64,000 bases of DNA from an uncultured Bacteroidales bacterium (GTDB lineage: Bacteria > Bacteroidota > Bacteroidia > Bacteroidales > P3): positions 143-64,142 of the forward strand of contig CALNBJ010000039.1 of assembly GCA_937874175.1 (NCBI GenBank), in the 5' to 3' direction. Made by a program: the position numbers and the translations under genes. Shown in pieces: positions 2,891-55,126 of this stretch (its first letter is position 1; each line of letters begins with the position of its first letter). The notes below the pieces were generated by a model. It saw nothing but the letters and a program-made list of their open reading frames with translations, ran no database searches and was not told the DNA's origin.

Positions 2891-4723
2891 TTGAAAATAA
2901 GAAGACCAGTATTTTTAATTGCATTTGTTTTTCTTATTCCCTTTTTGAGCATAGCTCAAGACAAAAAGGAGAAAGAAAAAACAATTGTTATTGATACTGG
3001 TCTTACTTTTACTCGATACACAACCCTCCCTTTAAGGAACCAACCCTTTCAATTGATTGACAAAACAATTGATGAGATAAGGCATGTGAATGCGGTTTAT
3101 AGAATAGAGAATATGTTTTATCAGCAACTCTCCACTGAGGGTTCACCACATAAGCCTCTTTTATTTCAACTTTCCGATTTACTTTCTTTTAATTACCAAC
3201 CCAGTGTTTATAATGCTGTAAAGTTTACAAGAGAGAATATTAAGTTCTACAATGTCTTTAAACCTTACTCCGAATTAAGATATTCTAATACTTTAAATAC
3301 CTCTCGCTATTTCTCTGTAATTCATGCTCAAAACATTTACAAAAACATTCACTTAGGTTTTCAATATGACGTTAACTACACAACTGGTTCTTTTGACAAG
3401 AGTCAAATTATGAATCAGTTCTTTAACGCAACCCTTCGCTTTAAAAACAAAAAAGAAACCTATGAAGGATATTTGGGATTCGTTAGAAATAGAGCGATGC
3501 AAAATGAAAGTGGAGGTCTAAAATCCGATTCTTCTTTTGCTGCTGGGGAGTTCTCTTCTCTCAATGCTTATCCTGTCAATTTAAGTATGGCTTACTCTAA
3601 ATGGAAATCTGTTGATGCTTTTTTGGTTCAAAAGTTTAATTTTGGCAAACTAATTAAGGATAGTTCAATTATAAGTAACCTCTCTTTGGTTCATGAACTC
3701 TCCTATTTTTCTAATGCAAGGCTTTATGTGGATGCAAATCCAATGGAAGGCTTCTACCAAAATTTCTATTTTGACACCTTAAAAACAAACGATTCTCTTT
3801 CAACTCAAAGAATCCAAAACTCACTTTCCCTTAGGAATGAAAAGACTATACCTTTTGAAATAGGAATTAAGCACGACTATGTTCTTTTTGCCGATTCTTT
3901 AAACAATGAAAGAAGTTCCAATTTCACTCCTTTCGTTAATTTAGGATTAGATGTAAGTGGCTTTAAATTAAACTTTCTTGCAGAATACATAATCTCTAAC
4001 AATAGGTATAATGAGGATTTCCAAATTGGAGGTAATGTTGAATTTAAAAATCTTTATGCAAACCTTAGGTTAATGAATAAGAGCGTTGATTATTTCTACA
4101 ATCGCTATTGGACAAATAACTTTAAGTGGGAGAATGATTTCTCTAAAACAAAGATGTTTAACACCAATTTGGGTTATAACCACAAAGAAAAGTTCGCAGT
4201 CAATATTGGATATTTCCTTTTAAATGATTTGGTTTATATTAACAATAACCTATTGCCTCAACAAACCAGTAAACCAACCTCAATCATTCAAGCATCACTT
4301 TTGCATAATCTTAAGCTTGGTATTTTTAATCTAAAAGGCGTAATGACTCTTCAAAAGCTATCTTCTGAAGAAGCAATAAGAGTGCCAGTTTTTCAAGCTA
4401 AACAAGGAATAAGCATAAACTTTAAGATGTTTAATCAAAAACTCCAAACCCAAGTAGGATTCGATTTCAGATATAATACATCCTATTTTGCTGATAGCTT
4501 TATGCCAGCAATGGGTGCTTTTGTTCAACAAGATAAAGTTAAGATTGGCAATTATTTATTTGCAGATTTCTTTGTTCAAGCACAAATTGACAGGGTGAAA
4601 TTCTTTGTTGCCCTTTGTCATCCTTATGCAGGAGTCTTTGGAAATGAATATTACCTAACTCCACACTACCCTTCCGAAAAGCTAAACCTTCGTTATGGAG
4701 TAACATGGATGTTCTTCGACTAA
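2891..4723 (+). CDS. putative outer-membrane beta-barrel protein (porin-like, function unknown)
   Basis: 610 aa with a TTG start and an N-terminal signal peptide (FLIPFLSIAQ). Alternating aromatic/hydrophilic beta-strand pattern throughout; ends in an aromatic-rich strand WMFFD. Confidence 0.5.
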   Translation: MKIRRPVFLIAFVFLIPFLSIAQDKKEKEKTIVIDTGLTFTRYTTLPLRNQPFQLIDKTIDEIRHVNAVYRIENMFYQQLSTEGSPHKPLLFQLSDLLSFNYQPSVYNAVKFTRENIKFYNVFKPYSELRYSNTLNTSRYFSVIHAQNIYKNIHLGFQYDVNYTTGSFDKSQIMNQFFNATLRFKNKKETYEGYLGFVRNRAMQNESGGLKSDSSFAAGEFSSLNAYPVNLSMAYSKWKSVDAFLVQKFNFGKLIKDSSIISNLSLVHELSYFSNARLYVDANPMEGFYQNFYFDTLKTNDSLSTQRIQNSLSLRNEKTIPFEIGIKHDYVLFADSLNNERSSNFTPFVNLGLDVSGFKLNFLAEYIISNNRYNEDFQIGGNVEFKNLYANLRLMNKSVDYFYNRYWTNNFKWENDFSKTKMFNTNLGYNHKEKFAVNIGYFLLNDLVYINNNLLPQQTSKPTSIIQASLLHNLKLGIFNLKGVMTLQKLSSEEAIRVPVFQAKQGISINFKMFNQKLQTQVGFDFRYNTSYFADSFMPAMGAFVQQDKVKIGNYLFADFFVQAQIDRVKFFVALCHPYAGVFGNEYYLTPHYPSEKLNLRYGVTWMFFD

Positions 4724-4729
4724 GGAAAT

Positions 4730-5131
4730 CTATCTTTTGTTTTTCAATTCAGCCTTATAAAATTTTAGACCAATCATTTCTTTTCTCAACTTCCTTTCTG
4801 ATTTGAAAGCAATCTTTTTAACCTTTATCCTACTTGGCTTACACTCCTCTTCTGTATCAAATCCTTCTGAAGTTAATGAAAGACTAAATGTCCCAATACC
4901 ATCTAATTTGACGTTATAGCCCAATTTCAACTTTGTTATAATAATATTTGACAATCCTTTCAAAGCCCCAACCATATCTGCTTCAGTAAAACTGCTTGAC
5001 TCAGAAATTTCTCTTGCCAAATCTTCTGTAGAAAAATGCCCTGCTGAAACTGCATTAGGATAAAACTTTGTTTGTTCAACACCGTCTTTGTCAATAAATA
5101 CTTTTTTAGTAATACTATAGTATCTTCTCAT
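4730..5131 (-). CDS. HU-like (HU_HIG-type) histone-like DNA-binding protein
   Basis: 133 aa. The segment DLAREISESSSFTEADMVGALKGLSNII...VKLDGIGTFSLSLTSEGF is the Bacteroidota HU-fold pattern. It is a paralog of the ORF at 40512-40937. Confidence 0.7.
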   Translation of the reverse strand: MRRYYSITKKVFIDKDGVEQTKFYPNAVSAGHFSTEDLAREISESSSFTEADMVGALKGLSNIIITKLKLGYNVKLDGIGTFSLSLTSEGFDTEEECKPSRIKVKKIAFKSERKLRKEMIGLKFYKAELKNKR

Positions 5132-5247
5132 GATATAATATATTTTTATATTTTTAATTTGCCATTAATTCAGATATCATTTCTTTAATTTCAAATTCCA
5201 TCAAAATTAAATCTTGACTTAAGTTTAAAACTCTTGATATTAGGCTA

Positions 5248-5255
5248 CAAAGATA
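5248..5255 (-). promoter_or_regulatory. -7 promoter box (TATCTTTG on the minus strand) for the HU-like gene
   Basis: The plus strand reads CAAAGATA, so the minus strand matches TAnnTTTG. It lies about 115 nt upstream of the start at 5131. Confidence 0.45.
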
Positions 5256-5331
5256 AGAAAATAATTTGACAAAACCTCGTTTAAATTTCCAAAAATGCTA
5301 TAAAAATTTCATAATATAGCACATTAATATT

Positions 5332-5413
5332 AGTAAGGTGGCACGATACTTTAGTAATGTGCCATGTTACTATAAGTATGGTGGCACGATACTCAAGTAA
5401 GGTGGCACCTTAT
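5332..5413. repeat. phased palindrome array, locus 1 (4 units, 21-22 bp period)
   Basis: The four units are AGTAAGGTGGCACGATACT, TAGTAATGTGCCATGTTACTA, AAGTATGGTGGCACGATACT and AGTAAGGTGGCACCTTAT. Unit centres fall at about 5341, 5362, 5384 and 5405. Confidence 0.85.
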
Positions 5414-5551
5414 GAAAATTAAACTTGATTTAAATAAGCCAAAACCCTTTAAAAATAAGGCAAAACAACGATTAGTAAAAACTATACAAAGAAAAACACC
5501 CTAAAAGATTAATTTTTTCACCCAAAATAGCCGTTATATGAAAAATTATAG

Positions 5552-5559
5552 TAATTTTG
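5552..5559 (+). promoter_or_regulatory. -7 promoter box TAATTTTG for the riboswitch-btuB transcript
   Basis: Exact TAnnTTTG match a few nt upstream of the riboswitch P1 stem. Confidence 0.5.
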
Positions 5560-5563
5560 CCTC

Positions 5564-5728
5564 GTTATTGGTTCTTTTTGGATTAATAGGGAATTAGGTG
5601 TGAATCCTAAACAGTCCCGCTGCTGTAAGCTCCTTTAGATAAGCAAGCATTACTTCTTTTGCCACTGAATTTATATTGATTTGGGAAGGCAGAATGCTTG
5701 GGAGTAAGTCAGAAGACCTGCCAATAGT
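5564..5728 (+). ncRNA. cobalamin (B12) riboswitch
   Basis: Conserved core AATAGGGAATTAGGTGTGAATCCTAAACAGTCCCGCTGCTGTAAG, then GCCACTG...GGGAAGGC. The B12 box is AGTCAGAAGACCTGCC. P1 pairs TATTGG (5566-5571) with CCAATA (5721-5726). A TonB-dependent receptor gene lies immediately downstream. Confidence 0.9.
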
Positions 5729-5774
5729 GTTTATTAACTTTTTATGTACTCTCGAGGAAAGAGTCTAAAATATT

Positions 5775-7787
5775 ATGATTAGAACATTTTTATCAGGTTT
5801 ATTACTCTTTGTATTTTTGTCGCCACTAATTTCATTGGCTCAAGAAAAGGATTCCATTAAAAGCATTATGCTTAATGAGGTGAAAATTACTGATTCCTTT
5901 TCCAAAGACTCTCTTTCCAAACAATCTTCCTCCGCTTTAGATTCAACAGTTATTAAAAAAATACCTTTTATTTCTGTTGGCGATATGGCAAAGTATATTG
6001 CTGGGGTTAGCGTAAGGGATTATGGTGGTGTTGGTGGATTAAAGACAATTTCTGTTAGAGGTTTGGGCTCAGGACATAGTGCTGTGGTTTACGATGGAGT
6101 TAGTGTTACTGATTTTCAAACTGGTCAGGTTGACTTGGGTAAGTTTTCTTCTGGAAACATTAAAGCAATTAATCTATTTAATGGTCAATCCTTCTCAATG
6201 CTTCAAACTGCAAGAGCCTTAGCCTTTGCAAATGTGTTTTTAATTGAAACTCAAAAACCACTGTTTGATAGCTTGCAAAGAATAAATGCATCAATTAAAA
6301 CTTCTTATGGCTCTTTTAATTATGGTAATTTGGGTTTGAATTTGGCTTATAAAGTAAATAATATATGGACTTCGTGGTTGGATTTGGATATTCAAAACAC
6401 AAAGGGGAATTATCCTTATTTGCTTCGTTATGGATTTGGTGAAAATGACTCTACATCAAAGGAAATTAGACAAAATTCCGATTATTTTGGGTTTAGAGGA
6501 GAATGGAATGCCTTTGCAAGCTTCAATTCTAAAACGGATTTAAAGCTAAAAGCCTATTATTTCTATTCTGAAAGAGGTTTACCAATGAGTACAACTCTCT
6601 ACTATTTGAATTCTTCACAAAGACTTTGGGATGAAAACTTCTTTTTGCAGAGTATATTCACACATAACTTCAATAAACGTCTTTCTTATCGCAATCATGC
6701 AAAGGCACTCTACTCTTTCTCCCATTTTCTTGACCCAAAAACCTTAAATCTTTCGGGTTTCCAAAGCGATAAATATTATCAAAGGGAATATTATTTGAAT
6801 AATGTTGCTTCCTATTTACTTGTGAAAGATTTAACTTTAGCTCTTAGCAACGATATTTTTCTTAATAATTTAAATGCTCCTTCTTCATTCTATTCAAAAG
6901 CAAATAGAACATCTTCAATCTCTGCCTTAAGTCTGCTTTTAAATAATTCCAAACTTCTAATCAATGCTAATATTTTGCACAACTATGTTTTGGATTATGA
7001 AGATAAGGAAAAGACTCAAAAAACTCAAAGCCACTTCTCTCCTTTTCTTTCAATTGGTTACACGTGGGAAGAAACCTTTACCATAAGTGCATTTTATAAG
7101 GATGTATTTCGAATGCCTTCCTTCAACGATTTATATTTTAACAGGGTAAGTTTTGCATCACTTGAGCCAGAAAAAGCCAAGCAATGGAATATTCATACAG
7201 AATTTTCTAAGAAGTTTGATTCTTACAAATCAAGTTTTATTTCTCTTTCCATTGATGCCTATTATAATAATGTAGAAGATAAAATTATTGCCGTTCCTCA
7301 AAGAAATTTATTTGTTTGGTCAATCATTAATTATGGAAGAGTTGAAATAAAAGGATTGGATATTCAATCTTCTTTCAGAACTTACCTTCCTTTTTCTTTG
7401 GATTTAAACCTTAGGGCAACCTATTCCTATCAAAAAGCCACGGATGTTTCAAATCCAAACGCACTAACCTTTAATCATCAAATTCCTTATACACCTATTC
7501 ACTCAGGTTCATTCTTTTTGAATATTACTCATCCATTAATAGACCTTGCATACACCATTAATTTTGTGGGTAAACGCTTTGCTCTTGCTGAAAACATTGA
7601 TAGAAATATGCTAAAGCCCTATCAAGACCACTCAATAACACTTTCTAAGGATTTCTTTTTGAAAAATAATAAGATAAATATAGGCCTATCTTGTCTTAAT
7701 TTGTTTGGAGTGCAATATGAGGTAGTTCGCAACTATCCAATGCCCCAAAGACAATTTCGTATAAACTTAAAATTAGATTTAAAATGA
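5775..7787 (+). CDS. btuB: TonB-dependent outer-membrane receptor, BtuB-like (cobalamin uptake inferred from the riboswitch)
   Basis: 670 aa with a signal peptide and a plug-domain pattern (ISVRGLGSGHSAVVYDGVSVTD). The rest is a long beta-barrel. It is preceded by a B12 riboswitch. Confidence 0.8.
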   Translation: MIRTFLSGLLLFVFLSPLISLAQEKDSIKSIMLNEVKITDSFSKDSLSKQSSSALDSTVIKKIPFISVGDMAKYIAGVSVRDYGGVGGLKTISVRGLGSGHSAVVYDGVSVTDFQTGQVDLGKFSSGNIKAINLFNGQSFSMLQTARALAFANVFLIETQKPLFDSLQRINASIKTSYGSFNYGNLGLNLAYKVNNIWTSWLDLDIQNTKGNYPYLLRYGFGENDSTSKEIRQNSDYFGFRGEWNAFASFNSKTDLKLKAYYFYSERGLPMSTTLYYLNSSQRLWDENFFLQSIFTHNFNKRLSYRNHAKALYSFSHFLDPKTLNLSGFQSDKYYQREYYLNNVASYLLVKDLTLALSNDIFLNNLNAPSSFYSKANRTSSISALSLLLNNSKLLINANILHNYVLDYEDKEKTQKTQSHFSPFLSIGYTWEETFTISAFYKDVFRMPSFNDLYFNRVSFASLEPEKAKQWNIHTEFSKKFDSYKSSFISLSIDAYYNNVEDKIIAVPQRNLFVWSIINYGRVEIKGLDIQSSFRTYLPFSLDLNLRATYSYQKATDVSNPNALTFNHQIPYTPIHSGSFFLNITHPLIDLAYTINFVGKRFALAENIDRNMLKPYQDHSITLSKDFFLKNNKINIGLSCLNLFGVQYEVVRNYPMPQRQFRINLKLDLK

Positions 7788-16862: not shown

Positions 16863-16945
16863 AAACAATGCCATTGTTTACTCAAAACAATGCCATTGTA
16901 TGACAAAAACAATGCGGTTGTTTTGACAAAACAATGGCATTGTTT
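16863..16945. repeat. phased palindrome array, locus 2 (4 units, exact 22-bp period)
   Basis: AAACAATGCCATTGTTT at 16863, AAACAATGCCATTGT at 16885, AAACAATGCGGTTGTTT at 16907 and AAACAATGGCATTGTTT at 16929. Confidence 0.9.
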
Positions 16946-17048
16946 TTAGTTCTAAAAGAAGTTTAGTTAGATTGAAAGCTTATAAAATTATTTTAAAAGC
17001 TTATTTACTGACTTTTATCTTTGATTAAATTGCAGGGAAATCTATTTC

Positions 17049-24878: not shown

Positions 24879-25114
24879 CAAAAAAGATTTGACACTAAAT
24901 ATCATTTAAAACATATATTCCTATTCAAAAATAAACCAAAGATATAAGCAAAGCAAGAATAGGAGAAATTGCAGTTTAAATAAGGGAAATAGAAATACCA
25001 ATTAGAGAAAATTTAGTAAAGAAGATTAAATTTTTAAGGCATATAACTTTATTTATATAAGGCTTCATTCAAACAAAACCCTATTTAAACATAATTAAAT
25101 CAAGTAAAAATTCC

Positions 25115-25218
25115 GTAAGGTGCCACCTTACTTAAGTATGGTGCCACCATACTATAATTATGGTACGACCATAACACAACTAAGGTACGACCATAACTAT
25201 ATTATGGTACGACCATAT
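25115..25218. repeat. phased palindrome array, locus 3 (5 units, 21-22 bp period)
   Basis: The five units are GTAAGGTGCCACCTTAC, AGTATGGTGCCACCATACT, TTATGGTACGACCATAA, CTAAGGTACGACCATAA and TTATGGTACGACCATAT. Their centres are at 25123, 25144, 25166, 25188 and 25210. Confidence 0.9.
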
Positions 25219-25351
25219 GAAATTTAAACTTGGTTTAAATAAAATAATACTTGATTTCCACAGATTTATATAAGGGAAAATAAATTTATAGTATGATTAA
25301 TTTTTAGAAAATCAGATTAAAGATATAATAAGTTAAGGTTGAAGGAATTCT

Positions 25352-36196: not shown

Positions 36197-36320
36197 TCCT
36201 TATTCTATTTTACTAACTCCTTATTCTATTCTACTGAAACAAGGTTTTATTTTACTGAAATCAAGTTTTAATTTTTTCTTTCTTCGTTTTAATTTACCGC
36301 AAACAAGGTTTTATTTTTTG
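36197..36320. repeat. phased direct-repeat array, locus 4 (about 21-bp period, non-palindromic)
   Basis: TCCTTATTCTATT at 36197 and 36218; ACTGAAA at 36233 and 36254; AAGGTTTTATTTT at 36241 and 36305. Confidence 0.75.
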
Positions 36321-36504: not shown

Positions 36505-36592
36505 TGGCGGAAAGTGAGGGATTCGAACCCCCGGACCTGTTACAGTCAACAGTTTTCAAGACTGCCGCAATCGACCACTCTGCCAACTTTCC
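36505..36592 (-). tRNA. tRNA-Ser (anticodon UGA), CCA encoded
   Basis: The reverse complement reads GGAAAGTTGGCAGAGTGGTCGATTGCGGCAGTCTTGAAAACTGTTGACTGTAACAGGTCCGGGGGTTCGAATCCCTCACTTTCCGCCA. It has a 7-bp acceptor stem, anticodon loop CTTGAAA, a long variable arm and the T-loop GGTTCGAATCC. Confidence 0.93.
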
Positions 36593-37911: not shown

Positions 37912-37934
37912 GTTTATATGTCGAATAATATTTC

Positions 37935-37942
37935 TACTTTTG
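37935..37942 (+). promoter_or_regulatory. -7 box TACTTTTG for the two-nuclease operon
   Basis: Exact TAnnTTTG match inside the longest ORF, 27 nt upstream of the internal ATG at 37969. This argues for the shorter start. Confidence 0.45.
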
Positions 37943-37968
37943 TCAAATTAATTTTAAATCAAAATTAT

Positions 37969-38802
37969 ATGACAAAAGGAATATTCAGTTCATTTAATGA
38001 GAATTCAAAACTATTTGAAATTCTTAAGAAAGAACCGCCTATTTGGTGGAAGAATATTAAATCTGATAAAGACTTAAATATTGAACTTAGAAAAGATAAC
38101 TATATTAATATCTATTACTATGGAGGTTGTGTCGCAAAGATATGGTATGATAATAAACTTCATGCAGAAACACATCATAAGTATTTAAATCTTCCTCAAA
38201 AAGGGGAAACAATTTATTTGGATTCTATAGATTATCTTAGTAGTGATAAAAAAATAAATGATATTAAATCAGCAATCAGTGATATTTTTCTTAATGATAA
38301 TATTGAAGGGGATCAAAAAAGAAAAGATAAAAAACTAACTGAATCTTGTGAAAAAAAAGTACAAGGAAGATTAATACTTGATTCAAAAGTTAATTATATA
38401 GATTCAGAATTTGCATATAATAGGTCAAAACAAAGAATTCGTTTTGATTTGATAAAAGTTGAAGATGGATCGATTTCATTTGTTGAACTTAAACTTATTA
38501 GTGATTCAAGATTAACTTCAAAAAAGGATAATGAGATAGAGATAATAACTCAAATGAATAAATATTCTGAGTTTATTCAAGATTATAAAGAGGATATTAT
38601 CCCATACTATAAAAAACTTTTAAATGTAAAGCAAAGTTTGGGGATAATTGATGACATCCCTGAAATAAAAGAACTGAATTTCAAACCTCAACTATTAATA
38701 ATTAATAATTATCTTGGTAAAGGTATTAAAGTTAGAGATAATAGAATTGATAGAATAAAAAAGATCATTTCAAACCAAAAATTTGATTTTGAAATAAGAT
38801 AA
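37969..38802 (+). CDS. hypothetical protein with a C-terminal PD-(D/E)xK-like nuclease motif
   Basis: 277 aa from the internal Met. Contains ESCEKKVQGRL ... IRFDLIKVEDGSISFVELKLISD, i.e. E, then D-x13-E-x-K. The N-terminal 150 aa have no motif I recognise. Confidence 0.5.
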   Translation: MTKGIFSSFNENSKLFEILKKEPPIWWKNIKSDKDLNIELRKDNYINIYYYGGCVAKIWYDNKLHAETHHKYLNLPQKGETIYLDSIDYLSSDKKINDIKSAISDIFLNDNIEGDQKRKDKKLTESCEKKVQGRLILDSKVNYIDSEFAYNRSKQRIRFDLIKVEDGSISFVELKLISDSRLTSKKDNEIEIITQMNKYSEFIQDYKEDIIPYYKKLLNVKQSLGIIDDIPEIKELNFKPQLLIINNYLGKGIKVRDNRIDRIKKIISNQKFDFEIR

Positions 38803-38803
38803 G

Positions 38804-40060
38804 ATGGAAATAATAATTCATAGAGGGACAAAAGAAATTGGAGGAACTTGCGTTGAGTTAATAATTAATAAGAAAAGACTATTATTAGATATTGGACTTC
38901 CTTTAGATTATGATTCTTGGTCGGATGAGCAAAGACAAAAATATGAGAATAAGATGTCTTCAATTATTCAAAAAGCAGATGCAATTTTCCTATCTCATTA
39001 TCATCAGGATCATACTGGATTGTTAAATATTGTATCAGAAAGAATGCCAATATATCTTAGTGATCCAACAATAAGAGCAATTAGAATACCTGAAATGTTT
39101 TTTGGAGATGTATTTAAGGGTTTTAATTTTATTCCAATCTATCATAGAAAAGCAATTACTGAGATTGAAGGAGTAAGGATTATCCCTTATAGAGTTGATC
39201 ATTCTGCTTTTGGAGCAATGGCATTTCTTATTGAAGATTTAAAGTCAAACAAAACTATTCTCTACACTGGAGATATTAGACTGCATGGATTAAGTAAAAC
39301 AAGTTATTTAAGTCTAAAACAAAATGTAGATTACATGTTGCTGGAAGGTACAAATATTGGGAGAGAATCCAACGAAATAATCAAATCAGAACAGCAAGTC
39401 TTTGAAAACTTTGTAAATATATTTAATTCATATCCTTCACATCTTAATTATGTATGGGCATCATCTCTAAATATTGATAGGATAAATTTACTATATGATG
39501 CTTGTGAGAAAACAAATAAGATATTAGCAGTTGATTTCTTTACTATGAATATCCTAAAATCAATGTATAAACATCATAATGTGCCTTATGGAAGTTCCAA
39601 TCGTTATATAAGATGTTTCTATCCAAATTATTTAACTTCATATATTAAAAGAATTCAACATAGAGATTATCTGATTAACTGTGTTCACTGGTGTAAGGTA
39701 AGTAAAACAGAAATAAAAGAAAATCCGTCTAAATATGTAGTTATGATTCGTCCAAGTATGATAGAAGACTTAAAGTATATTGATGCCAATAATGCAAATT
39801 ACATAACCTCAATATGGAAAGAATATGAGAGGGATGAAAAATACAAATCATTCTTTGAATACATTAATAATAAAGGATATAATAAGTTTTATAATCACAC
39901 AAGTGGACATGCTTTTGTTGAAGGCTTAAAGGAGTTAAATCAATATCTAAATCCTAAAACAATAATCCCAATTCATACACAAGAAGCTAATCAATACAAA
40001 GATATTTTTCCTGATTCCAATATCTTACAACTTTCAGACGGAAAAAGAACATTGCTATAG
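38804..40060 (+). CDS. metallo-beta-lactamase-fold nuclease of beta-CASP type
   Basis: MBL motifs IGGTCVEL, LSHYHQDHTG and YTGDIRLHG. An inserted domain follows, then the C-terminal HTSGHA and IPIHT motifs typical of beta-CASP enzymes. The start lies 1 nt after the upstream stop. Confidence 0.65.
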   Translation: MEIIIHRGTKEIGGTCVELIINKKRLLLDIGLPLDYDSWSDEQRQKYENKMSSIIQKADAIFLSHYHQDHTGLLNIVSERMPIYLSDPTIRAIRIPEMFFGDVFKGFNFIPIYHRKAITEIEGVRIIPYRVDHSAFGAMAFLIEDLKSNKTILYTGDIRLHGLSKTSYLSLKQNVDYMLLEGTNIGRESNEIIKSEQQVFENFVNIFNSYPSHLNYVWASSLNIDRINLLYDACEKTNKILAVDFFTMNILKSMYKHHNVPYGSSNRYIRCFYPNYLTSYIKRIQHRDYLINCVHWCKVSKTEIKENPSKYVVMIRPSMIEDLKYIDANNANYITSIWKEYERDEKYKSFFEYINNKGYNKFYNHTSGHAFVEGLKELNQYLNPKTIIPIHTQEANQYKDIFPDSNILQLSDGKRTLL

Positions 40061-40100
40061 ATAAGGAGTTTAAATAAGATAATATGGAGTTTCGCCTCAA

Positions 40101-40330
40101 TTTATAAAGTCTTTGGGTTATCTTTATAAAGTCTTTAGGGTAAAAAGACTTCGTTTTTATGATTCAAGAGTGGCATTCTTGTCCTTCAAGAGTAGCACTC
40201 TTAATGCTCAAGAATGCCACTCTTGAAATCAATTAAGCTTATTAATTCATCCAAAAGACTTCAACAAACTACCCCAAAGACTTTATTAATTCACCCCAAA
40301 GACTTTGTTAATTCACCCCAAAGACTTTGT
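40101..40330. repeat. dyad-symmetric phased palindrome super-array, locus 5 (10-11 sites, 22-bp period)
   Basis: AAAGTCTTT sites are centred at 40110 and 40132. The three central palindromes are CAAGAGTGGCATTCTTG, CAAGAGTAGCACTCTTA and CAAGAATGCCACTCTTG, centred at 40173, 40195 and 40217. AAAGACTTT sites are centred at 40258, 40280, 40302 and 40324. The whole array is symmetric about 40195. Confidence 0.9.
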
Positions 40331-40511
40331 TTTATATCAGAAAGAATGCATGTTTCTACAATAAATATCTTGATTTAATGTTGAATATTACACGTTTTAT
40401 ATAATTTTAGAGTGATTTTATAGTTATTAGTTTAGATTTTAATTGTTATTTTTTGACAGTGTTACATAATACGTAACACTCTATTTATTAATTTTTAAAC
40501 CTATTTTAATT

Positions 40512-40937
40512 ATGGGAAAAAGATATGGTACTTGGAAAAGGAAGTTTAAAGACGCTTCTGGAGAAGAAAAAGAATTGTATTATGCCTGTTCAAGAAGGGG
40601 AAATGTGACTGATTTTGATGGATTAGCAGAAATAATTACTGAGATTTCTTCTCTTAGTAAAGGAGATATTTTGTCTTCGCTCACCAATATTGAGCAGGTT
40701 ATGTTATGGAAATTGATTGATGGAGATTCTGTTCGTTTTGGGGATATTGGAACTTTTAGTATTGCTGTAACAAGTGATGGATTTGAAAATCCAGAAGATA
40801 TAACTCCTGATAAGGTAAGGGCAACAAAGATTGTTTTCACCCCTACTAAGAAGTTTAATAAACTACTTTTGGAGATGAAATTCACCAATTACGATAAACG
40901 ATTAAGAAAAGCTTTAGGTAAAAGATATTCTAAATAG
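40512..40937 (+). CDS. HU-like (HU_HIG-type) histone-like DNA-binding protein, second paralog
   Basis: 141 aa. The segment LAEIITEISSLSKGDILSSLTNIEQVM...VRFGDIGTFSIAVTSDGF aligns with the ORF at 4730-5131. Confidence 0.7.
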   Translation: MGKRYGTWKRKFKDASGEEKELYYACSRRGNVTDFDGLAEIITEISSLSKGDILSSLTNIEQVMLWKLIDGDSVRFGDIGTFSIAVTSDGFENPEDITPDKVRATKIVFTPTKKFNKLLLEMKFTNYDKRLRKALGKRYSK

Positions 40938-54846: not shown

Positions 54847-54908
54847 AAAGATGCACATCTTTCATACCAAAAGATGCACATCTTTCACTATAAAAGATGT
54901 GCATCTTT
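54847..54908. repeat. phased palindrome array, locus 6 (3 units, exact 23-bp period)
   Basis: AAAGATGCACATCTTT at 54847 and 54870; AAAGATGTGCATCTTT at 54893. Confidence 0.9.
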
Positions 54909-55126
54909 TTTTTTCTAAAATTTATTGGGGGATTTTTGATTAAATCTCTAAAAACTCTGTCTTAAGATTTTATATTTGCAAATATAGTAAATTTTTCTTG
55001 ATTATCAATGAAGAAAATTGGAATTTTTAGTTTTTAAATTTTAATTTGGGAATGAGTTTTATACTTGCTCCTTTTTTTATCTTCTTTTTTGTCCACGAAT
55101 TTACCGAATTTACACTAATTTTTTTA

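Follow-up and report, generated by a model that had tools for sequence, protein, structure and literature searches.

Phased arrays of TG-S-CA palindromes upstream of HU-HIG genes in Bacteroidales

Results

Organization of the super-array at 40101-40379

We analysed a 64,000-nucleotide stretch of contig CALNBJ010000039.1 from an uncultured Bacteroidales bacterium (hereafter the window; source 31% G+C), in which an intergenic region at 40101-40379 carries a dyad-symmetric array of short, regularly spaced sites, super-array E, ahead of a gene for an HU-like protein of the HU-HIG family (PF18291). The array itself (40101-40333) ends about 180 bp upstream of the gene. The region is laid out as follows; related loci are referred to by number (L or P).

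40101 to 40144, minus strand: left flank of E, two 22-bp iterons with core AAAGTCTTTGGG, centred at 40110 and 40132, in opposite orientation to the right flank
40165 to 40225, no strand assigned: central palindromes of E, three 17-bp units with a TG-S-CA-type centre at an exact 22-bp period
40250 to 40333, plus strand: right flank of E, four 22-bp iterons CCCCAAAGACTTTRTTAATTCA, centred at 40258, 40280, 40302 and 40324
40369 to 40379, plus strand: CTTGATTTAAT, a copy of the ACTTGATTTAAAT-like flank motif that elsewhere borders arrays as inverted pairs
40381 to 40409, plus strand: candidate HU-HIG promoter (TTG, 18 nt, TAATTTTA), a putative and imperfect Bacteroidetes -33/-7 pair
40512 to 40937, plus strand: HU-HIG gene of 141 amino acids (PF18291), the candidate binder, downstream of E

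The central palindromes, read directly from the sequence, are CAAGAGTGGCATTCTTG, CAAGAGTAGCACTCTTA and CAAGAATGCCACTCTTG, centred at 40173, 40195 and 40217, and the third is the exact reverse complement of the first. Together with the AAAG-T-CTTT units on the left and the AAAG-A-CTTT-type units on the right, they lie at mirror distances of plus or minus 22, 63 and 85 bp around 40195, with two additional units on the right side. Tandem Repeats Finder (TRF) reported 22-bp periods here and at 5332, 16861, 25125 and 54847, and the stretch 40085-40345 forms a single long imperfect dyad (folding z = -9.6 to -9.7, either strand). An earlier sequence-only reading of this region had listed the same site centres, the reverse-complement relation and the mirror symmetry, all of which are as in the sequence. 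It had also described the flank sites as palindromic, which needs correction: E is a composite, in which the palindromes stand between 2 + 4 asymmetric 22-bp iterons (core AAAGWCTTTGGG) whose two sides run in opposite orientation, and the homologous but diverged flank units at the same place in L011, L014 and L018 are not palindromic.

Across 10 strains the central units of E are identical and the iteron number varies (2-3 left, 3-4 right); this inequality between left and right speaks against a need for a single long hairpin. The central palindromes are kept before orthologous HU-HIG genes at 64% protein identity (L011, L014), and the architecture of E is retained in orthologous loci at 64-70% protein identity. 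The iteron core differs between genomes, being AAAGTCTTTGGG in the window, AAAGTAATYWGGTTG in L011 and L014 and TCAAATCTTAGGG in L018, and is the same left and right within each genome. Read by eye rather than from a formal alignment, the candidate promoter stretch at 40381-40409 resembles the DNA before the orthologous genes of L011 and L014; no perfect TAnnTTTG box occurs within 40050-40520. Directly upstream of E, a gene pair at 37918-40060 encodes a protein of ~270-290 amino acids without a Pfam match and a metallo-beta-lactamase (MBL)-fold hydrolase with an RMMBL domain; the pair is also present at L014 7431-9493 and absent from L011.

A Bacteroidales-wide family of arrays

The palindromes of E are part of a large Bacteroidales-wide family of arrays, found in many metagenomes and many genera. 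Each array is intergenic and consists of 3-7 or more short palindromes whose centres lie ~22 bp apart, equal to two helical turns, and each unit combines an invariant TG-S-CA centre with 4-7 bp of covarying palindromic arms, the arm sequence being array-specific. With a uniform detector (>=3 palindromes, each with >=7/9 complementary positions, spaced 21-23 bp), we found five palindrome arrays in the 64-kb window against a mean of 0.05 in 40 dinucleotide-preserving shuffles; for the window, the expectation of the sequence-only reading that arrays would be commoner than in shuffled sequence was thus borne out. The remaining arrays of the window, with their immediate neighbours, are listed below.

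4730 to 5131, minus strand: second HU-HIG gene, 133 amino acids, forming with array A a cassette that is diverged between strains
5332 to 5412, no strand assigned: array A, four GTAAGGTG-S-CACCTTAC units spaced 21-22 bp apart, lying upstream of the second HU-HIG gene at a distance of 200-280 bp
5418 to 5436, no strand assigned: flank hairpin/motif ATTAAACTTGATTTAAAT beside array A; the array end at L014 2861-2879 has the same motif
16863 to 16946, no strand assigned: array B, between convergent genes, four AAACAATG-S-CATTGTTT units repeating every 22 bp
25095 to 25240, no strand assigned: array C, five units (two of GTGCCAC type, three of GGTACGACC type) upstream of gyrB, with inverted ACTTGRTTTAA borders
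36197 to 36310, no strand assigned: locus D, direct repeats of flank-type motifs (AAAYCAAGKTTT; GAAAYCAAGKTTTTA), no palindromes
54847 to 54909, no strand assigned: array F, three AAAGATG-CA-CATCTTT units, each with a centre of 2 nt, repeating every 23 bp and lying upstream of a TATATTTG box at a distance of 60-125 bp

These results narrow one earlier claim and widen another. Six loci of one design had been proposed, with E as their flagship; five of them are palindrome arrays, and locus D, which has flank-type direct repeats only and is tied to the family solely via the flank motif, does not share the design. The family itself stands and is far larger than the window, with at least 120 metagenome pattern matches.

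Alignment of 70 distinct units from many loci revealed that only the centre (T9-A13) is invariant; at plus or minus 3 to 7, most units are complementary. Position plus or minus 4, for instance, holds an A-T pair in 24 units, a C-G pair in 20 and a G-C pair in 14, and 8 units are unpaired there. Covariation across copies, which the sequence-only reading had named as a check, is evident: 80.6% of arm cells are complementary versus 61.5% in shuffles, cells changed on both sides number 151 versus 67, and sliding the partner by one column lowers complementarity to 26-29%. Spacing is exactly 22 bp in most arrays, the ~22-bp period is common to unrelated arm classes, and 3-7 bp separate neighbouring palindromes. 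The central base pair can be G or C within one array, and palindromy continues through the centre.

Discrete arm classes recur across species and loci, among them TCATGSCATGA, TAATGSCATTA and AGATGSCATCT, and the recurrence of a few such classes is predicted by recognition by specific proteins, not by drifting stems. The AGATGSCATCT class was found on contigs of 36-52% G+C, several of them from human gut metagenomes, and human gut metagenome contigs also carry CACAAGATGSCATCTTGTG arrays. In L158 and L160, the units join two unlike half-sites and are not self-complementary, so that a lone unit cannot form a hairpin; neighbouring units there are reverse complements and could pair together.

Arrays are often bordered by inverted ACTTGATTTAAAT-like motifs, as in L092 (TAACTTGATTTAAATCTCA, array, TGACATTTAAATCAAGTTA), and similar inverted borders occur in L084, at window arrays A (5418-5436) and C (25095-25105/25222-25240) and at L014:2805. 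The proximity of a CTTGATTT-like motif to arrays, pointed out previously, held as an association, with 6/10 copies beside arrays and inverted inner-flank copies elsewhere, but not as a window-wide enrichment (10 matches versus 8.6 expected). The ACTTGATTT motif is thus the element's inner border, which accounts for six of ten copies lying beside arrays despite the lack of overall enrichment.

No array from the window, L015, L034 or 20 metagenome loci matched an Rfam family at the gathering threshold, and the E-value mode returned only generic hairpin (microRNA precursor) matches far below it. Likewise, we found no description of the arrays in the literature on HU-HIG, PF18291, Bacteroides nucleoid-associated proteins and the unit sequences. 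The family is therefore apparently undescribed and uncatalogued, in agreement with the earlier proposal.

The compensatory changes in the arms, which are abundant, would also be expected of an RNA element, in which the array is transcribed as the 5' end of an HU-HIG leader or as a small RNA and forms tandem hairpins with a GSC triloop closed by a U-A pair, acting in mRNA stability or translation control or titrating an RNA-binding protein, possibly HU-HIG itself. Sense-strand mismatches comprise 40 G.T versus 23 A.C, TRCGG-type centre variants (a U.G pair on the sense strand) recur in array B, L015, L027, L031 and L034, and the whole E region folds (z about -9.6). In addition, the first unit is preceded at 12-15 nt by a perfect Bacteroidetes -7 box (TATCTTTG) in L015, L027-L031, L034, L166 and L169, a position that would make the array the 5' end of a ~270-nt leader. 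Nevertheless, for arrays A, C and F and for most arrays away from HU-HIG genes, the nearest promoter box lies downstream and none accompanies the array itself. Both strands fold equally well, and lone units make weak hairpins (between 0 and -4.7 kcal/mol in most classes; two tested units do not fold). The L158 and L160 units lack self-complementarity, palindromy through the loop with G or C at the centre of one array is unexpected for a loop read by its sequence, the last unit is 96-272 nt from the ATG and thus far for translational control, and no Rfam family matches. The structured-RNA option of the sequence-only reading is weakened by these observations, and we regard it as distinctly unlikely. 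Together with the class-independent ~22-bp period, the missing promoter boxes of A/C/F-type arrays, the palindromy through the loop, the unlike half-sites and the weak hairpins favour binding of a protein to duplex DNA.

Association of the arrays with HU-HIG genes

Both window proteins match PF18291 (cut-off 26.2), the product of 40512-40937 with 72.4 bits (E = 4.5e-20) and that of 4730-5131 with 95.9 bits (E = 2.3e-27). In the PDB, the profile of the 141-amino-acid clade hits chains of HU and IHF across residues 34-121, spanning the entire fold, and a nearly invariant proline lies within the segment of the alignment read as the beta-arm.

We then examined the DNA before HU-HIG genes in a sample of one genome per species plus individually looked-up relatives, in which L033 was too short upstream to judge. 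In the clade of the 141-amino-acid protein, an array was present upstream in 18/19 evaluable loci (38-100% identity), ~100-300 bp before the ATG. The clade of the second window protein had an array upstream in 4/4 loci, and a 210-amino-acid clade from gut metagenomes in 2/2, with CAAAG-N-CTTTG units at ~22 bp directly after the TATCTTTG box. Combined, the three clades carry an array upstream of or across the promoter in 24/25 loci; the other arrays in ~339 kb of flanking DNA number three, corresponding to a ~260-fold enrichment at HU-HIG genes. The earlier observation that both HU-like genes of the window have an array upstream is therefore confirmed and generalises to three HU-HIG clades.

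Furthermore, the arm class tracks the protein clade, and paralogs of one genome differ in class, as in JAEZKK01 (L018, L025, L029) and also in DIOL01, DHCV01 and JBAZSY01. Since nearly every HU-HIG gene examined has an array, the arrays are probably the binding sites of that protein family itself. L107 (1157-2554) has three tandem HU-HIG genes beside a CCTTATGSCATAAGG array, an example of the local duplications described for the HU-HIG family.

Comparison of the window with L155, which belongs to the same species, revealed flanks of 97-100% identity around an array A of 46-64% and an HU-HIG coding sequence of 74-88% identity. Against L155 and L156, the diverged segment (4773-5420) extends from the outer edge of array A to the end of the HU-HIG gene, with 0.85 synonymous substitutions per site (dS) and a nonsynonymous-to-synonymous ratio (dN/dS) of 0.12. 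Between array A and its L155 orthologue, the unit type is switched from GTGSCAC to GGTACGACC. Other alleles (P0039, P0040) look like mosaics of both types; in P0040, the N-terminal part is like the L155 allele and the remainder, including the segment read as the DNA-binding arm, is like the window allele. The joint divergence of array A and its HU-HIG gene fits a cognate pairing of protein and site.

Arrays away from HU-HIG genes

In the converse direction, we scanned metagenomes for ATGSCAT occurring three times at 22 bp, with the arms left free, and at least 120 stretches matched. Among the matches listed, 55 are TG-S-CA palindrome arrays, a few of them with borderline palindromy, and many others are unrelated direct repeats. 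An HU-HIG gene adjoins 3 of the 55 arrays among the matches listed and 1 of the 28 with both sides visible, roughly one array in 10-30, and a broader HU-HIG profile built from 157 proteins returned the same three loci. In L046, L104 and L109, 22-bp tandem arrays of 16-23 units contain ATGSCAT and are not palindromic; these are unrelated minisatellites and show that 22-bp and 11-bp periods are common in other repeats too.

Arrays elsewhere stand upstream of panB, lpxD, uppS, gyrB and genes for an ABC-F protein, a U32 peptidase, an extracytoplasmic function (ECF) sigma factor, a sigma-54 activator and a GH92 protein, among others. Dispersed arrays usually lie 60-230 bp before a TAnnTTTG box, and most arrays are upstream of such boxes in DNA that is probably not transcribed (window A, C and F; the uppS, lpxD and ABC-F loci). 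Many arrays are found at contig ends. A search of the window with tblastn found no HU-HIG remnants (pseudogenes) beside arrays B, C and F.

The relation is thus asymmetric: HU-HIG genes nearly always have an array, and most arrays are elsewhere. This asymmetry is predicted by an autoregulated DNA-binding protein with dispersed sites, and also by a dispersed repeat often carried by HU-HIG genes.

Other loci in the window

Orthologues of array A are present in L155, L158 and L160. The arm class of array B also precedes the HU-HIG genes of L027 and L028, and array B is possibly what remains of an HU-HIG leader region. Five other strains carry array C unchanged, with both unit types present, and similarly mixed unit types recur in another genus (L021:1099). 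In one strain, a 21-bp repeat of the AATTYCYCTTATTT type is present in one additional copy, placed between the gyrB promoter boxes and array C (L162 ~3660-3680, corresponding to window ~24960). The units of array F have one additional central base and a 23-bp period.

The genes around the arrays include those for deoxyhypusine synthase, an MBL-fold hydrolase, a BcrAD-type activase, GyrB and ClpB, as well as a TonB-dependent receptor preceded by a cobalamin riboswitch. This riboswitch (5552-5739, plus strand; Rfam RF00174, 101.7 bits) lies upstream of the receptor gene (5775-7787), in the same divergent intergenic region as array A and the second HU-HIG gene. A tRNA-Ser gene (TGA anticodon; 36505-36592, minus strand) adjoins locus D. 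The same proteins occur in bioreactor and digester assemblies, e.g. GCA_034933505.1. Compared with L001-L010, the region at 45.9-54.4 kb is a variable island downstream of a TetR gene with strain-specific content, encoding LRR and Por_Secre_tail proteins in some strains and DNA methyltransferases, DUF5655, DUF6996/6997, parts of type I restriction-modification systems and AAA_15/AAA_21 proteins in others; the island has the look of a defence and surface-gene hotspot.

Discussion

We tentatively favour, with doubt slightly outweighing belief, the reading that the arrays are double-stranded DNA binding arrays for HU-HIG dimers, serving both autoregulation and dispersed architectural sites. We infer HU-HIG as the binder and regulation as the outcome from the association with HU-HIG genes, the symmetry of the units, the matching of arm class to protein clade and the position of the arrays; the symmetry would fit a dimer on duplex DNA. 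The units would be duplex sites for HU-HIG homodimers, each paralog recognising its own arm class, and dimers on successive sites would share a helical face and assemble into a bent or wrapped nucleoprotein complex. Where this forms at an HU-HIG gene's own promoter, it would lead to autoregulation, and arrays of the same class 60-230 bp upstream of other promoters, as before gyrB in the window, would act as dispersed architectural or regulatory sites like IHF-binding mosaic elements. Some arrays would be operators just downstream of a promoter and others upstream sites, and all might grow, shrink or vanish via unit slippage and recombination. The earlier suggestion of nucleoprotein sites bound by HU_HIG-type proteins is accordingly upheld as to the gene association, its mechanism being a conjecture from sequence that we hold only to the tentative degree given above.

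Several points weigh against this reading. L024 has no array, although its protein is 99% identical to those of L023 and L095, which have six units (~150 bp); the junction (GTCAAT followed by ATCATTAG) has only a 2-bp AT in common, representing a clean presence/absence difference, and the array is therefore dispensable for that gene. The joint divergence of array A and the HU-HIG gene may be plain linkage in one recombination import (dN/dS 0.12). In at least 8 HU-HIG loci, the first unit follows a perfect TATCTTTG box by 12-15 nt, which would suit a transcribed leader as well. Since so few of the arrays lie beside HU-HIG genes, they could be a general element, one merely common at HU-HIG genes. 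The sole published proposal for HU-HIG, a role in conflict with invading DNA (Burroughs et al. 2017; PMC5499826), argues against sequence specificity and considers these proteins unlikely to be sequence-specific factors. Finally, the TG-S-CA centre is common to all classes, for which a single common regulator would be the simpler account.

Under this last alternative, one or more dimeric regulators other than HU-HIG would read an R-TG-S-CA-Y core, with HU-HIG genes as their most regular targets. The invariance of the centre in every arm class and HU-HIG clade examined, the location of most arrays before unrelated genes (panB, lpxD, uppS, those for the ECF sigma factor, sigma-54 activator and GH92 protein, and gyrB) and the otherwise intact gene of the array-less L024 are all consistent with it. 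We nevertheless regard it as quite improbable: a single regulator leaves unexplained the match between arm class and HU-HIG clade, the differing classes of paralogs and the joint divergence of the array A cassette, and no other conserved neighbour gene accompanies the arrays. Known sites read by eye (Fur/PerR 7-1-7, FNR TTGAT-N4-ATCAA and sigma-54 -24/-12) fail on spacing or on the second half-site.

The presence/absence difference between L023/L095 and L024 also bears on a selfish or neutral origin, in which the arrays are a repeat resembling repetitive extragenic palindromes (REP) and bacterial interspersed mosaic elements (BIME), or a BrickBuilt-like minisatellite, or a transposable element of the miniature inverted-repeat type (MITE). 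Such a repeat would spread by slippage, recombination or a trans-acting transposase and accumulate in promoter-rich intergenic DNA, and the link to HU-HIG would reflect insertion preference, tolerance or a host-factor role rather than regulation by design. Dispersal in many genomes, the many arrays at contig ends as for multi-copy repeats, the variation of unit number between strains, flanks that resemble terminal inverted repeats, the putative relic array B between convergent genes, and one Y1_Tnp gene adjoining the L160 array are compatible with this origin, as is the precedent of BrickBuilt in P. gingivalis, one copy of which precedes a PF00216 gene (PMC4596501). Yet the arrays occupy orthologous positions before HU-HIG genes down to 38% protein identity, evolving in place, and the centre and ~22-bp period are conserved in all classes while the arms stay palindromic, which argues that the units are under selection. 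At the loci examined, neither a clear target-site duplication nor a partner transposase could be established, the units have no REP-type GTAG/CGTC tag and are unrelated to BrickBuilt, and no such arrays occur in 2.9 million viral contigs. We therefore judge a purely selfish or neutral repeat unlikely. The mobile-element relic envisaged in the sequence-only reading may be a partial truth, in view of the presence/absence and copy-number polymorphism and the inverted flanks, and a selfish repeat is partly compatible with HU-HIG binding, since BIMEs are also bound by proteins.

A bolder extension of the HU-HIG binding model, which we consider doubtful, holds that HU-HIG proteins would be radiating sequence-specific nucleoid proteins rather than generic histone-like ones, each recognising the TG-S-CA core with paralog-private arms and nucleating on 22-bp-phased arrays, both at the promoter of its own gene and at dispersed sites numbering tens to hundreds, with gene and array co-diversifying as cassettes. 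If true, this would represent a hitherto unrecognised level of chromosome architecture and promoter control, addressed paralog by paralog, throughout Bacteroidales, gut species included. To our knowledge, HU-HIG proteins are among the largest lineage-specific protein expansions in Bacteroidetes, and neither their function nor their ligand is known. A near-obligate, clade-matched array would offer a concrete DNA target for each paralog and make function testable. The arrays are in any case an apparently common, unannotated promoter-proximal element in Bacteroidales, human gut contigs included, of relevance to models of gene regulation and to promoter engineering. Their frequent position at contig ends suggests that they probably break assemblies, and the variation of unit number between strains makes them useful for strain typing.

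Comparison with known systems

Several identities were considered and rejected. The total period of 22 bp with 3-7 bp between palindromes does not suit a CRISPR array, whose repeats measure 24-48 bp with unique spacers of similar length. Read by eye, a sigma-54 promoter (TGGCAC-N5-TTGC) fails for want of a -12 element, most classes having TGGCAT; Fur/PerR 7-1-7 boxes are spaced differently; the FNR box TTGAT-N4-ATCAA is matched just by half, within the flank motif; and the IHF consensus WATCAANNNNTTR does not fit the flank motif. A phage origin was rejected because in 2.9 million viral contigs the pattern matched 4 stretches, with no palindrome array among them.

BrickBuilt elements of P. gingivalis (Klein et al. 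2015; PMC4596501), the nearest elements so far described, consist of 23-nt bricks with a leader and a tail bearing inverted ends, are intergenic and strain-variable, and occur in 19 copies, of which one repeat-only copy lies upstream of a gene for a PF00216 DNA-binding protein. The likeness includes the Bacteroidales host, tandem units of ~22-23 nt, an intergenic and dispersed distribution, inverted-ended flanks, copy-number variation, nearby promoter activity and the lack of an Rfam match. However, the brick AGACCATAGTATCCTCTCATATG is unrelated and contains no TG-S-CA palindrome, and the IS5-type terminal inverted repeats GAGACCTTTGCA were not seen here; neither has similarity to our units or flanks, so identity with BrickBuilt was rejected. 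BrickBuilt is also restricted to P. gingivalis and P. gulae, whereas the present family spans many genera, with arm classes tied to HU-HIG clades.

With REP/BIME elements, the arrays share the character of high-copy intergenic mosaics of short imperfect tandem palindromes with conserved motifs outside the palindromes (PMC3733652); the window has 5 arrays per 64 kb, and at least 120 metagenome stretches matched the pattern, 55 of those listed being palindrome arrays. REP palindromes of 20-40 bp have a conserved GTAG or CGTC tetranucleotide at the 5' end (PMC3733652), while the present units measure 13-19 bp, have TG-S-CA at the centre and keep a strict ~22-bp period, and among the 70 aligned units no end shows conservation of either tag. 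They further differ in having several arm classes per genome, in lying mostly upstream of promoters rather than in 3' untranslated regions, and in being near-obligate before HU-HIG genes. As to a partner transposase, an IS200-like Y1_Tnp gene (PF01797, 25.9 bits) lies at L160 1996-2670 (complete genome OY782678.1, 2.69 Mb), directly upstream of the array and the HU-HIG gene; a different gene occupies this position in L158, and none was present among the neighbours looked at in other loci. It may be a coincidence or a partner resembling REP-associated tyrosine transposases (RAYT). Of MITE-type features, inverted flanks are present, together with the one presence/absence case and its 2-bp AT junction, in which no clear target-site duplication was seen. 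Enterobacterial BIMEs, the RIB/RIP type included, are bound by an HU/IHF-family protein (IHF in some of them) and by gyrase, and one of the arrays here is upstream of gyrB. In function, these BIMEs and autoregulatory operator arrays such as parC/ParR are the closest analogues.

The parC/ParR system of plasmid R1, the Omega heptads and 22-bp plasmid iterons are autoregulatory operator or centromere arrays of small dimeric DNA-binding proteins. The arrays resemble them in their many short, helically phased sites, which can be symmetric at the promoter of the presumed binder and would allow a cooperative filament or wrap; dyad-symmetric phased sites stand at the promoter of the candidate binder in 24/25 loci. 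They differ in their chromosomal housekeeping context, in a presumed binder with an HU fold rather than a ribbon-helix-helix or Rep protein, and in site classes that are scattered. The analogy with plasmid iterons or a partition centromere drawn in the sequence-only reading breaks down on genomic context, as no rep or par gene was present among the called neighbours and related contigs reach 2.7 Mb and are chromosomal.

Closest to the presumed binder are IHF, Hbb and TF1, dimers of the HU fold which recognise a defined site and impose a sharp DNA bend, in line with the clade profile matching HU and IHF structures. We know of no demonstration of sequence-specific binding by an HU-HIG protein. 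The sites of IHF are asymmetric, ~30-35 bp long and single, whereas those described here are symmetric, ~15-17 bp long and repeated every 22 bp.

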